DNA from: a virus
Taxonomy: Duplodnaviria > Caudoviricetes
IMG/VR virus record: IMGVR_UViG_3300037454_000475
Span: 1 to 64,000 of that record
Length of the DNA: 64,000 bases
Strand: one strand, 5' to 3'
How positions within the stretch are numbered: position 1 is the first letter of the stretch; each line of letters begins with the position of its first letter. Shown here in pieces: positions 35,066 to 51,025 of this stretch. The notes beneath the pieces are model-generated. The model did no database searches, was not told where the DNA came from, and saw only the letters and a list, made by a program, of their open reading frames with translations. The position numbers were made by a program, and so were the translations under genes.

Positions 35066-35098
35066 AAAAAAAGGCGCTGATTGACTGGTTCAGCGCCC
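35066..35098 (-). terminator. Intrinsic terminator closing the RNA operon
   Basis: GGCGCTGA/TCAGCGCC stem plus T7. Confidence 0.85.
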
Positions 35099-35131
35099 GA
35101 AACCTTTGTAGGTCATTTACCTTTGGTAAAA

Positions 35132-35151
35132 GACAATATTGGGAGAAATTT
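35132..35151 (-). promoter_or_regulatory. Trailer complementary to the boxA leaders
   Basis: AAATTTCTCCCAATATTGTC pairs with leader GACATATTGGGAGACATTT. Confidence 0.7.
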
Positions 35152-35227
35152 TGGAGCGGATGATGGGACTCGAACCCACGATATCCTGCTTGGAAGGCAG
35201 GCGCAATAGCCGCTATGCGACATCCGC
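35152..35227 (-). tRNA. tRNA-Gly(TCC)
   Basis: CCTGC-CT TCC AA-GCAGG; encoded CCA. Confidence 0.95.
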
Positions 35228-35334
35228 ATGGTCGAGGGGCTGCTCGGCGTCACGCCGCCCCCTCGTGAGTGTTCCTTGGTGTCTTACGGATTTACAGCTG
35301 ATTACCGAGGTAGCAAAGCACACTGAACAAGCCG

Positions 35335-35417
35335 CGGAGAGTGGAGGTCTCGAACCCCATACGTTGCCGTACCAACCGCCTTCCAAACGGCGTTGCCGCC
35401 TTGGCAATTCACTCTCC
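35335..35417 (-). tRNA. tRNA-Ser(GGA), 8/4 fold
   Basis: GGAGAGTG/CACTCTCC 8-bp acceptor, 4-bp T stem, long variable arm. Confidence 0.85.
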
Positions 35418-35423
35418 ATAATG

Positions 35424-35495
35424 AGCCGCAAGCTGGATTTGAACCAGCGACCTCGTCCTTACCAAGGACGCGTTCCACCCCTGAACTATTACGGC
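35424..35495 (-). tRNA. tRNA-Thr(GGT)
   Basis: CGTCC-TT GGT AA-GGACG. Confidence 0.92.
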
Positions 35496-35656
35496 ATGTT
35501 GGACATCATTAAGAACTCTTTAGAATCCCGCATCCTCCTTTGTTTAAGTTCCTCCAGCCACATTGCAAGCTGTGCATGATCCAATCCGCATTCTTTATTG
35601 GAACATGTCGAAGCAACCTCGTTGGCATGTTGGATGGCTTCATCAAGAGTCATCAT
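35489..35656 (-). CDS. Small hypothetical protein
   Basis: MMTLDEAIQHANEVASTCSNKECGLDHAQLAMWLEELK; A-rich leader. Confidence 0.7.
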   Translation of the reverse strand: MMTLDEAIQHANEVASTCSNKECGLDHAQLAMWLEELKQRRMRDSKEFLMMSNMP

Positions 35657-35673
35657 ACTGATATATTTATTTG

Positions 35674-35797
35674 TCGAGGCGAGAGGATTCGAACCTCCAA
35701 AACCACTAACGTGGCCCCATGGCTTTCCACTCGAGCAACTATAACCACGGCTCCCGGACCAACCCCGGGCGTGTATAACCAATTTCACTACGCCTCA
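35674..35797 (-). ncRNA. tRNA-scaffold RNA, Pro-like ends, two extra hairpins in variable region
   Basis: Intact acceptor and T arms; non-canonical loop GGTTGGT; ~50 nt insert. Confidence 0.75.
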
Positions 35798-35801
35798 ATA
35801 A

Positions 35802-35878
35802 GGGTGAGTAGTCAGGTTCGAACTGACGATCTCCGGATCCACAATCCGGCGCATTGGACCAACTATGCTATACACACC
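35802..35878 (-). tRNA. tRNA-His(GTG)
   Basis: CCGGA-TT GTG GA-TCCGG; G-1. Confidence 0.92.
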
Positions 35879-35885
35879 ATCTGTA

Positions 35886-36000
35886 ATGTCTATCGGGCAT
35901 CCCTCTTACCTTCAGGCCACCCACACCCGTTTGGTTGGACGGGTTGCCCTTGATGGATGGCCGGGGATTCGAACCCCTATTATTAGATTTCGATAAACAT
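35886..36000 (-). ncRNA. Circularly permuted tRNA mimic (Y RNA/YrlA-like)
   Basis: 10-bp closing helix, then T arm, loop-closed acceptor-like stem, D-like arm. Confidence 0.6.
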
Positions 36001-36003
36001 TGT

Positions 36004-36074
36004 GTTCCCGGGTGGGATCGAACCACCGACCTTCTCCACGTCAAGGAGATGTTCTCCCGCTAAACTACAGGAAC
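36004..36074 (-). tRNA. tRNA-Val(GAC)
   Basis: TCTCC-TT GAC GT-GGAGA. Confidence 0.92.
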
Positions 36075-36234
36075 ATTAGCAGATTTGGTTTAACGTATGC
36101 CGGAGTTCTGCCGGACTCCCACGGATGGGTTCCTCTCTTTTGCGGCTTATCCATCAGCCGTCATACCGGGCATCCTGACTTTCGGTATGCTTTACCCACG
36201 TTTTTACCAGTTATGGACGTTATCAGGTTGGTAG

Positions 36235-36306
36235 TGCTCCCGAGTGGATTTGAACCACTGACCTTCTGCATGTGACGCAGATGTTCTCCCCCTAAACTAC
36301 AGGAGC
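36235..36306 (-). tRNA. tRNA-Val(CAC)
   Basis: TCTGC-GT CAC AT-GCAGA. Confidence 0.9.
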
Positions 36307-36417
36307 ATGTTGCCTCGACACCTTTAAAGAACCAATCAACTATCGCGCGAATGTGATGGACAAGAAACACCCTGCAGCTGGCCGAGGCCTACTCCTCTGC
36401 GTATCGTTGTTCTCTTT

Positions 36418-36495
36418 TGGTGCTCCCGGCAGGATTCGAACCTGCGACCCCCTGAATGTAAATCAGGTGCGCTAAACCGGCTACGCTACGAAAGC
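36418..36495 (-). tRNA. tRNA-Val(TAC)
   Basis: CCTGA-TT TAC AT-TCAGG; CCA. Confidence 0.95.
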
Positions 36496-48959: not shown

Positions 48960-49032
48960 TACCACCGGTGGGATTCGAACCCACAACCTCACGGTTAAGA
49001 GCCGCGAGCTCTGCCAATTGAGCTACGGAGGT
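48960..49032 (-). tRNA. tRNA-Lys(CTT)
   Basis: CGCGG-CT CTT AA-CCGTG. Confidence 0.93.
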
Positions 49033-49112
49033 ATGATGATCGGATATTGTAGCATTAGGTACAAGTGCACCCTGAGGCATGTTTCACCTCGGATCTCGGC
49101 ATATCCGATTTG

Positions 49113-49185
49113 TGCTCCCGGTGGGACTCGAACCCACAACTCCCACATTAAAAGTGTGGTACTCTGCCAGTTGAGTTACGAAAGC
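49113..49185 (-). tRNA. tRNA-Lys(TTT)
   Basis: CCACA-CT TTT AA-TGTGG. Confidence 0.93.
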
Positions 49186-49236
49186 CTACTGTTTACCTGA
49201 TTTGTCGTCTTCCACGACAGTGCGTTTTCGTCTCAT
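49186..49236 (-). CDS. Candidate micro-ORF MRRKRTVVEDDKSGKQ
   Basis: A-rich leader, ATG, stop abutting tRNA-Lys; duplicated. Confidence 0.45.
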   Translation of the reverse strand: MRRKRTVVEDDKSGKQ

Positions 49237-49278
49237 GTTATTAATTTTTTATTTGTTTCAGTTTAAGTGTGACTTAAT

Positions 49279-49354
49279 TGGTGCTCCCGCAGGGACTCGA
49301 ACCCTGAACTCCCGGAGTAAAAGTCCGGTACTCTACCAATTAAGTTACGAGAGC
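49279..49354 (-). tRNA. tRNA-Lys(TTT)
   Basis: CCGGA-CT TTT AC-TCCGG; CCA. Confidence 0.93.
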
Positions 49355-49404
49355 CAACGTTTACCTGATTTACCGTCCTTTACGGCTTTACGTTTTCGTC
49401 TCAT
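49345..49404 (-). CDS. Candidate micro-ORF MRRKRKAVKDGKSGKRWLS
   Basis: Paralog of 49186-49236; runs 10 nt into tRNA-Lys. Confidence 0.45.
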   Translation of the reverse strand: MRRKRKAVKDGKSGKRWLS

Positions 49405-49463
49405 AGCTTAAATGTTTATTTGATTGTTGTTCGCCCTTTAATTAAAAACACCCTACGAACGTT

Positions 49464-49832
49464 GTACTCGGCAACCTCGGATATTGTGGAGGGCCCATCC
49501 ACGGTTTTGACCAGCTAAAGTTTGATGGTGCTTGGTATCCCAATCTCCACTTGCTCGCCTGCGGATGGCGGATGCCGCTGTGGCCCGGCAACTGGCAACG
49601 GAGTACCCATCCGATCAGGGCCGTGCTGTTCCTTGGCCAACACGGATACCATTTAGACCTCCAATAGTTATCGAAACCTGAAGTATCCACCTACCATCAG
49701 GGGAAGTTTGCAACCTTCCCGGGAATCCAGTTTCAACCTCCCGTCCTTTACACCACCTCGCGCATTTCACGGATCAGCCTTCTCCGGAGTTGCCTTCGCT
49801 CTCACGGCCGCGTGGTTCCACGGATTGGAGTA
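49464..49832 (-). ncRNA. Candidate ~370 nt structured RNA
   Basis: End pairing GGCAAC..CGGA/TCCG..GTTGCC; TGGTATCC/GGATACCA; TGGAGG/CCTCCA. Confidence 0.55.
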
Positions 49833-49841
49833 TTGTTTCTG

Positions 49842-50009
49842 TGATCTCGGTGGGAGTTGAACCCACATTACCATAATCGTTTGCTTTACCACTGCAATGG
49901 TGGGGCGACTAACACGCGTTGTCGCGCTGTCCTCCCCCAAACTTTCAGGTACTACCACTATATCCCAGTGTGAATCTGTTGCAGCATCATCTCTTTGGAG
50001 TACGAGACC
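49842..50009 (-). ncRNA. tRNA-scaffold RNA (~168 nt) with inserts in several arms
   Basis: GGTCTCG/CGAGATC acceptor, GTGGG-TTCAACT-CCCAC T arm. Confidence 0.7.
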
Positions 50010-50020
50010 TTTTAAATATG

Positions 50021-50156
50021 CACCAAGACGAGGATTCGAACCTCGGCCTCAATGTCCTCTCGGGCATTGTATTCTGTCCTCTTTCCATCGTGGCAACTCC
50101 GGCCGGCTGTACAACCAGCTTATTGGTCTTACCACGACTTCATCTAACTACCTTGA
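50021..50156 (-). ncRNA. tRNA-scaffold RNA with ~70 nt D-loop insert and GAGA-capped anticodon arm
   Basis: ATCAAGG/TCTTGGT acceptor, perfect T arm, GTCGTGGTAA/TTGCCACGAT insert helix. Confidence 0.72.
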
Positions 50157-50341
50157 TTGATTGATTATTTCCCTCACTCATCAACCGGTGGTGATTCGCG
50201 ACTCACCACCCGACCCTATTTGCCGGTTCAAACTCTACCGGTGTCGGCTGATTACGTTACGCGGGAGAAGCTACCTCCCTGGAAGGTACTCTACCTTCCC
50301 AAACAGAATTGTTTGTTATGAATGAGTTATTTCCTCAACTT

Positions 50342-50414
50342 GTGGATTGGTGGGATTCGATACCCACATCACGCGGTTGCATACGACCGGAATATTACTT
50401 ATACTTACAATCCA
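50342..50414 (-). ncRNA. Aberrant tRNA-like RNA (8-nt anticodon and T loops)
   Basis: TGGATTG/CAATCCA; GTGGG-TATCGAAT-CCCAC. Confidence 0.6.
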
Positions 50415-50720
50415 TCGGCCTCGAGATTACCATACGTTTCTCCTGTTGGCTGTGCACACCAACAACTCCCCTACGGACGCCATCCTCTGTACTCTGTTGA
50501 CTTTCGGTTTACTGCAGCACCTACATGGTCCAACGTTTCCGTGACTTTACGCGACTGGCTCTTGTGAGAAGACCTCGTTATTATCGGACGCTTTTGCATC
50601 GATTCTTTGTCCGATTGCCTCTTAACCTTGTGTTACGCCTGTGTTCCGGTGGCCGGAGTGGTATCTCCCAATCGAGCTTTTGTACCACTGCTAACACTGC
50701 TCTGAAGAGATTCAAACTTG

Positions 50721-50793
50721 AGCGAAGAATGGGACTCGAACCCACGATCTCGACCTTGGCAAGGTCATATTCTACCAACTGAACTACCTTCGC
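50721..50793 (-). tRNA. tRNA-Gly(GCC)
   Basis: TGACC-TT GCC AA-GGTCG. Confidence 0.95.
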
Positions 50794-50908
50794 ACCGTGG
50801 GGAGGCGATATCTCATCTACCTCCCCGTATATCTTGATCAGCCTTTGACCCACGGTTAATATTCCAGTGAAGGGCAAACCGCATATTATTTCAGGTTGTT
50901 TCGGCTGA

Positions 50909-50947
50909 ATAAGAATCAATCAAATGTCTCCCAATATGTCAAAGAAC
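50909..50947 (-). promoter_or_regulatory. boxA-containing leader, copy 1
   Basis: GTTCTTTGACATATTGGGAGACATTTGATTGATTCTTAT. Confidence 0.8.
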
Positions 50948-50992
50948 CCTTGTTTTATGTTGGTTGGAACGTTTTATCGTTCCTTTCAACGT

Positions 50993-51025
50993 CTATATAT
51001 AATCAACCTCCTGCGAAACTTAACA
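50993..51025 (-). promoter_or_regulatory. Promoter of RNA operon
   Basis: TGTTAA-N18-TATATATAG. Confidence 0.75.

Follow-up and report, generated by a model that had tools for sequence, protein, structure and literature searches.

The 64-kb window analyzed here, i.e., the first 64 kb of the 105-kb IMG/VR virus record IMGVR_UViG_3300037454_000475 (~58% complete, 43% GC), stems from a rumen phage that probably has its host in the phylum Bacteroidota, and carries on its minus strand a large array of transfer RNA (tRNA) genes together with a transfer-messenger RNA (tmRNA). We found this array to be led by two copies of a sequence that includes an exact host ribosomal RNA (rRNA) operon (rrn) boxA, and to be followed, directly after its last tRNA, by a trailer complementary to both leader copies. 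Our preferred interpretation, which we consider likely although by no means certain, is that transcription of the array would yield one or two very long RNAs (8.4 and 15.8 kb), for the most part non-coding, that imitate a Bacteroidota rRNA unit, with boxA antitermination and leader–trailer processing. Co-option of host rRNA antitermination and processing by the phage had been proposed in an original prediction made from this DNA, and is supported by the sequence comparisons below, in which W designates the window's own locus while L003, G068, G069, G065, and similar labels designate comparison loci or contigs.

Two identical boxA leaders in the tRNA array

The elements that define the proposed transcription unit are as follows:
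51091–51121, minus strand: terminator-like hairpin and U-run just upstream of P1 (L003 has an equivalent hairpin and T-run before its promoter)
50993–51025, minus strand: promoter-like site P1, GTGTTAA..TTATATATA, conserved in P2 and L003
50966–50983, minus strand: boxB-like hairpin 1, GGAACG/6-nt loop/CGTTCC (−8.4 kcal/mol, z −3.2)
50909–50947, minus strand: leader copy 1, 39 nt (boxA 50932–50947, helix strand 50922–50940)
35152–50793, minus strand: tRNA array (38 tRNAs called by ARAGORN, a permuted tmRNA, and further tRNA-like elements)
43611–43644, minus strand: promoter-like site P2, TTGTTAA..TTATATATA, after tRNA-Thr(CGU) and a T9 run
43590–43602, minus strand: boxB-like hairpin 2, GGAAC/AAG loop/GTTCC (weak: −4.9 kcal/mol, z −1.7)
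43535–43573, minus strand: leader copy 2, identical to copy 1 (boxA 43558–43573, helix strand 43548–43566)
35152–35227, minus strand: last tRNA, Gly-UCC with encoded CCA
35132–35151, minus strand: trailer strand, complementary to both leader copies, starting at the first base after the CCA of the last tRNA and upstream of the terminator
35059–35098, minus strand: intrinsic terminator, 9-bp GC-rich stem then U7GU6 (−17.1 kcal/mol, z −3.4)

Ahead of each leader copy, the promoter-like sites share a consensus (TTGTTAA, then N17–18, then TTATATATA), and the hairpin lies 18–19 nt upstream of boxA in both cases. Across the entire 105-kb record there are exactly two occurrences of the 39-nt leader, where 0 would be expected by chance; the two copies are identical at 39/39 positions, and their flanks have diverged outside these 39 nt. 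The pair of promoter-like sites, each followed by a GGAAC/GTTCC hairpin and an identical 39-nt leader, is thereby confirmed as originally described. Downstream of leader copy 2, a tRNA-Ile(GAU) and a tRNA-Ala are encoded. At the upstream end of the unit, the terminator-like hairpin ahead of P1 was read as an insulator, which would shield the array from upstream transcription. This hairpin is itself preceded by a promoter-like site (51317–51345) and a short open reading frame (ORF) region (51091–51345 overall, minus strand), an arrangement common to L003.

The leader carries a host-type rrn boxA

When the leader was aligned to host rrn leaders, its first 16 nt (GTTCTTTGACATATTG) proved identical (16/16) to the boxA that precedes 23S rRNA in Pedobacter and in four of the Bacteroidales genomes sampled, with close variants (GTTCTTTGACACACTG and GTTCTTTGAAAATATTG) present before host 16S rRNA. 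For instance, in one complete Bacteroidales rRNA operon (L166), GTTCTTTGAAAATATTG precedes 16S and GTTCTTTGACATATTG precedes 23S. The 16-mer was detected in 14 of the 61 sampled Bacteroidales genomes and, among the loci fetched, was located directly before 23S in 4 and before 16S in 1. A strict host pattern (hairpin, short gap, then GTTCTTTGACAYAYTG), searched in one genome per species across 185,579 species, returned 6 matches, 5 of them in Bacteroidota (three Pedobacter rRNA operons and two rumen Bacteroidales metagenome-assembled genomes, MAGs) and one in a Terriglobia MAG. The Pedobacter matches sit between the spacer tRNAs and 23S, just upstream of 23S, and the GGAAC/GTTCC hairpin also precedes boxA in this 16S–23S spacer. 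Judged by sequence, the phage carries a Bacteroidota rrn boxA in rrn order, i.e., hairpin then boxA.

The resemblance extends to the base at which pairing starts. In Pedobacter and L166, stems of 35 bp are formed by the flanks of 23S and of 16S, with a 5′ strand that begins inside boxA at TGACATATT, and the phage helix described below begins at the same bases of boxA as the host stems (T7/G8 or G8/A9); the phage array therefore occupies the place of 23S.

Exact copies of the rrn boxA 16-mer were also encountered away from rRNA and tRNA genes in Bacteroidales (L134, L133, L136, L143, L144, and L147/L149), sometimes just before protein-coding starts, which hints at Nus/boxA regulation of other genes, by analogy with suhB in Enterobacteria. 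Separately, a 6289-bp rumen Bacteroidales MAG contig (L124, minus strand, 216–3143) displays three tandem copies of a boxA 15-mer, each followed by TAGAGAA, with a GGAAC/GTTCC hairpin at the first copy and the complement TTCTCTACAATAT ~100 nt upstream of the later ones. The 1.3-kb segments between these copies encode opposite-strand ORFs (Fic/DOC and AAA/DUF4143), and the whole looks like a repeated, rrn-flank-like cassette junction.

A trailer complementary to the leader directly follows the last tRNA

The predicted helix in W comprises 18 bp, interrupted by a single bulge and a single mismatch, and contains a perfect 11-mer complement; its arms are 8396 nt (leader 2) and 15770 nt (leader 1) apart. 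The original prediction was accurate on both counts: a trailer at 35132–35151, after the last tRNA and before the terminator, sharing an 11-nt perfect core with the leader, and a helix enclosing about 8.4 or 15.8 kb. We evaluated this pairing with RNAduplex, for which 53-nt leaders proved too noisy, as they included tRNA sequence, and the calculations were repeated with leaders of 26–46 nt. The W duplex reached −21.2 kcal/mol, compared to −11.8 ± 2.6 kcal/mol for dinucleotide-shuffled trailers, 7 out of 2000 of which were equally good, and the trailer ranked first as a leader partner among 15,970 windows across the W array. For the 42 nt following each of the other 37 tRNAs in W, the best leader pairing was only −15.3 kcal/mol.

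The same result was obtained across arrays of several phages. In W, L003, G068, and G069, the 42-nt flank of the last tRNA is by far the best leader partner among the 29–38 tRNA flanks of each array, and the last-tRNA trailer also forms the top duplex in scans of 16–20 kb.

The layout recurs in two other phage lineages

The complete arrangement, from promoter or promoter-like site, hairpin, and boxA through a 9–14 kb tRNA/tmRNA array to a trailer abutting the last tRNA and a terminator, was identified in two other phage lineages, represented by L003 and by G068/G069. The 45-kb contig L003, found via the gene located downstream of the W array, includes a promoter-like site, a GGAAC/GTTCC hairpin, a variant boxA (GAACTTTGACACACTG), and then 8.7 kb with 36 tRNAs and a tmRNA, directly after which a 26-bp complement of its own leader follows the last tRNA and precedes a terminator. 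Of 2000 shuffles, 0 equalled the L003 duplex (−33.0 kcal/mol), and no other duplex in that locus is stronger. L157, closely related to L003, carries a 32-nt insertion precisely at the bulge that separates two helix segments, and both segments are intact. G068 (185 kb) and G069 (194 kb) form a separate lineage. Here, a TAnnTTTG promoter of the canonical Bacteroidota type, the hairpin, and boxA stand before 12.6 kb (G068) and 14.2 kb (G069) of tRNAs and tmRNA; a 25–28-bp leader complement comes right after the last tRNA, then a terminator, and this duplex is the best in 20 kb.

Covariation between these lineages was read from a scripted pair table, with L003 shifted by one position. Double compensatory changes separate W from L003 at boxA positions 12, 14, and 18, and W from G068 at positions 18, 19, 20, 24, and 25, while G068 has G·U wobbles at positions 17 and 21, compatible with pairing of RNA but not of DNA. 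Leader–trailer pairing is supported by this covariation, and the helix would presumably form in the cell.

A strict scan of viral contigs for the hairpin and boxA, from which G068 and G069 came, yielded 9 more contigs, all of them (9/9) with same-strand tRNA arrays downstream, and a looser scan (hairpin and CTTTGACA) yielded 114 loci, mostly by chance, which were filtered by tRNA content. No match was found to the exact leader 21-mer in viral contigs, or to the leader region by distant blastn against GenBank phages; a leader pattern including GATTCTTAT retrieved only the L003 contig itself, and starting from the OmpA-like gene that lies upstream of the array, no related viral loci emerged. In the metagenome relatives L159, L160, L163, and L165, arrays end differently or the leader is absent on short contigs, which made these contigs uninformative. 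Overall, since some boxA-led arrays have no helix (see below), the more widespread feature is boxA ahead of a phage tRNA array, to which some lineages have added the helix. The conservation and covariation expected for leader and trailer hold for L003 and G068/G069, where the helix occupies the same place with different sequences and compensatory changes, and do not hold for the more distant relative G065 and two other boxA-bearing families.

A proposed route from promoter to mature tRNAs

We propose that the small hairpin and the host-type boxA (GUUCUUUGACAUAUUG) on the nascent RNA would recruit host NusB–S10 with NusA and NusG, as suggested by their identity with host rrn elements. Host RNA polymerase would then become a termination-resistant, rrn-type complex, which could pass internal T-runs and kilobases of untranslated RNA open to Rho. 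The 3′ half of boxA and the next 11–25 nt may subsequently pair with the sequence after the last tRNA, closing the array as in host 23S and 16S precursors, with boxA, tethered to the polymerase by Nus factors, delivering the 5′ strand to the trailer across 8–16 kb. Host RNase III would presumably cut the helix, or the helix could otherwise mark the ends, so that leader and terminator hairpin would be removed and only a short 3′ extension of the last tRNA left to trim; the individual tRNAs would be freed by RNase P and 3′ nucleases. In W, the second identical leader could re-establish the modified polymerase mid-array, and the 39/39 identity of the two copies amid diverged flanks may be explained because both have to pair with a single trailer.

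Several elements of this scheme are known from other systems. boxA alone can seed the assembly of the rrn antitermination complex, and suhB and CRISPR arrays are further sites of its action (PMC13753749, PMC5725501); leader–trailer helices are RNase III substrates, with >17 bp needed for 16S (PMC10250234). Nus recruitment and RNase III cleavage in the phage would be analogous to the processes described in E. coli and B. subtilis (PMC13753749, PMC5725501, PMC10250234). Neither NusB, NusG, nor RNase III was found in four phage records, including the complete 339-kb relative, while a Bacteroides control has all three; host factors would therefore be needed.

A broader scenario can be envisioned, in which large Bacteroidota phages build tRNA islands as pseudo-rRNA operons and the Nus-held boxA carries the leader up to 16 kb to its trailer, which would be by far the longest such loop known. 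Heavy transcription of boxA units (two copies here) could then draw NusB/S10 away from host rrn and so damp ribosome synthesis, at a time when tRNAs and tmRNA come from the phage itself. We put this forward as a speculative extension, more probably wrong than right.

Arguments against the proposed scheme and alternative explanations

A number of observations weigh against an rrn-like unit closed by a processing helix. At the promoters, no exact match to the Bacteroidota −7 motif TAnnTTTG was found in the W or L003 promoter-like sites, and because of this mismatch another polymerase is possible there, i.e., a phage-modified or phage-encoded polymerase may act at these promoters. In the leader, no boxC equivalent was recognized 3′ of boxA, though no search was aimed at boxC; we know of no Bacteroidota boxC consensus. 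To our knowledge, rrn antitermination has never been shown experimentally in Bacteroidota. As for the helix, the one in W is short and interrupted by a bulge and a mismatch: set against the roughly two helical turns that RNase III would require, W offers 18 bp (interrupted), L003 and G068 offer 26 and 28 bp (both bulged), and the host stems reach 35 bp. In the W array, the runner-up window attains −20.6 kcal/mol, a margin of about 1 kcal/mol, and the compensatory changes total about 8 pairs across three independent lineages only. Finally, in the complete 339-kb relative G065, the same boxA leader and a TAnnTTTG promoter stand before a 9-tRNA cluster, after whose last tRNA there is only a 9-bp interrupted and non-significant match (1234 out of 2000 shuffles as good). 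Similarly, in the L099/L173 family and in L053, boxA lies 14–20 nt before the first tRNA with no trailer helix; the helix is therefore not needed for boxA-led arrays. In L173, a candidate trailer at position 6077 falls within an ORF of 160 aa and was discarded as a chance match.

Alternatively, boxA could drive Nus-type antitermination while the helix serves a purpose other than processing, either protecting the transcript ends from exonucleases or sequestering the 3′ half of boxA at the end of the array, which would release NusB/S10 for an efficient stop at the terminator 30–50 nt downstream. This would be consistent with a helix that always includes boxA bases 8–16 and sits just before an intrinsic terminator, with a W helix shorter than typical RNase III substrates, and with the E. 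coli 16S helix mattering independently of RNase III (PMC10250234). On the other hand, RNase III classically cuts host rRNA stems built in this way, and the trailer exactly abuts the CCA of the last tRNA, as would fit a role in end maturation, so that we regard a non-processing helix as unlikely, albeit worth considering. Much less probable is the possibility that leader and trailer are functionless relics of a captured host rrn fragment (23S flanks). Here, the similarity of the leader to the 5′ flanks of host 23S continues past boxA (GACATATTGGAAGA in hosts vs. GACATATTGGGAGA in the phage), and a tRNA-Ile(GAU) and a tRNA-Ala follow leader 2, but spacer tRNAs in hosts are located upstream of boxA rather than downstream, the leader copies have stayed identical amid diverged flanks, and pairing is maintained via compensatory changes in three lineages.

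The remaining alternatives concern the nature of the complementarity itself. The two segments flank a mobile-looking gene block as inverted repeats and could in principle be DNA sites, e.g., for an invertase or a recombination system flipping or excising the array. We consider this highly improbable, since RNA tolerates the G·U-type mismatches of G068/G069, which disrupt DNA repeats, the helices include bulges of 1–6 nt and a 32-nt insertion, and both arms lie within one promoter-to-terminator unit whose design matches host rRNA stems. Alternatively, only the duplicated promoter and leader would be real and the trailer complementarity a coincidence, as might be suspected from the 23 inverted repeats of ≥14 nt in this 17-kb region and from the near-equal second-best duplex in the array. 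Such a coincidence appears barely credible when so few shuffled trailers match the real ones (7/2000 in W and 0/2000 in L003) and when four arrays from three lineages all have their best partner in the last-tRNA flank, an outcome with a ~1 in 40,000 chance if any of the 30–38 flanks were equally likely.

Composition of the array

Beyond tRNAs, the following features are located within the array:
48186–48566, minus strand: tmRNA, circularly permuted (two-piece); Rfam RF04321, 63 bits, 48277–48524; ARAGORN tag GARTEMAIAA
45741–46139, minus strand: third ORF, same strand as the tRNAs
44242–45432, minus strand: ORF, 396 aa, no Pfam match
37015–37788, minus strand: ORF, 257 aa, with a glycoside hydrolase family 16 (GH16) domain (E 5e-10), embedded in the array

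The three same-strand ORFs make up ~15% of the array transcript, so the long untranslated transcript originally envisioned has to be qualified as mostly non-coding and not wholly untranslated. Permuted tmRNAs are also present in the arrays of L003, G068, G069, and L165.

In addition to the called tRNAs, about 20 extra T-arm-like motifs (GGTTCGAAYCC) are scattered between them at 35300–50400 (minus strand), e.g., at 36724–36753, 37995–38024, 39050–39079, 39302–39331, 42158–42187, 49849–49878, and 50349–50378. This suggests that the array includes many tRNA-like or tRNA-scaffold RNAs not called by ARAGORN and Rfam. One additional tRNA (39210–39283) was called by Rfam alone. Among related arrays, amber-suppressor tRNAs with anticodon CUA (called as Pyl by ARAGORN) were observed in L159 (4582–4653), L160 (31–102), and L174 (10724–10801, minus orientation), suggesting TAG recoding in the phages that carry them. 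In L003 (3049–3146) and L159 (1441–1538), the anticodons of tRNA-like genes called by ARAGORN have four bases (UUGA and AAAG); these genes could be either frameshift-suppressor-like tRNAs or mis-called intron-bearing tRNAs.

Implications for large phages and their hosts

Large phages often carry dozens of tRNA genes, but the full-length transcription and the processing of such long untranslated blocks have received virtually no study. In the literature, we found work on boxA in rRNA, suhB, CRISPR arrays, and lambdoid phages, and none on phage tRNA arrays or jumbo phages; boxA-dependent antitermination of CRISPR arrays was reportedly described by Stringer et al. in 2020. Our results suggest that packaging tRNA arrays with rrn signals is a previously undescribed route by which phages could make and trim very long non-coding transcripts. 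If true, Nus/boxA antitermination and leader–trailer processing would cover a type of cargo not known for them before and would reach into phages of Bacteroidota, a phylum whose own rrn antitermination is barely characterized. These arrays would also provide a natural 8–16 kb test of whether a boxA-tethered 5′ end can be delivered to a distant 3′ partner. In practical terms, a host-type boxA upstream of a tRNA array is a simple signature that could help predict phage hosts and define the transcription units of tRNA islands.

Comparison with known systems

The closest counterpart is the bacterial rrn leader (boxB–boxA–boxC), on which the antitermination complex rrnTAC assembles with NusA/B/E/G, SuhB, and S4. 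The phage leaders share with it the order of promoter-like site, small hairpin, and boxA, as well as a boxA 16-mer identical to the Bacteroidota pre-23S one; they likewise head a long non-coding unit, with a second boxA mid-unit as in the 16S–23S spacer. Unlike rrn leaders, they are phage-borne, the factor binding is at the stage of a prediction, and the cargo consists of ~38 tRNAs, a tmRNA, other small RNAs, and three ORFs instead of rRNA. The predicted helix is similarly reminiscent of the rRNA leader–trailer helices flanking 16S and 23S, which are RNase III substrates: in both cases, flanks enclose a whole block of mature RNAs, the helix starts in boxA, and it covaries. The phage version would, however, enclose 8.4–15.8 kb rather than 1.5–3 kb, spans 18–28 bp compared to 35 bp in the measured host stems, abuts the 3′ CCA of a tRNA, and is a predicted rather than established cleavage site.

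Two further systems provide partial parallels. CRISPR arrays and the suhB leader are non-coding or poorly translated units with boxA-dependent antitermination (PMC13753749, PMC5725501), and the phage array would follow the same logic, in which a long untranslated unit needs Nus/boxA to escape Rho; those cases, however, are chromosomal, mainly from Gammaproteobacteria, and without a trailer helix. The nut sites of phage lambda offer a precedent for phage use of boxA and host Nus factors in processive antitermination, although the lambda order is boxA then boxB, the phage N protein acts on boxB, the transcripts are mRNA operons, and boxA departs from the rrn consensus. In the tRNA arrays described here, by comparison, no phage factor is evident, and both the order and the sequence of the elements are of the rrn type.

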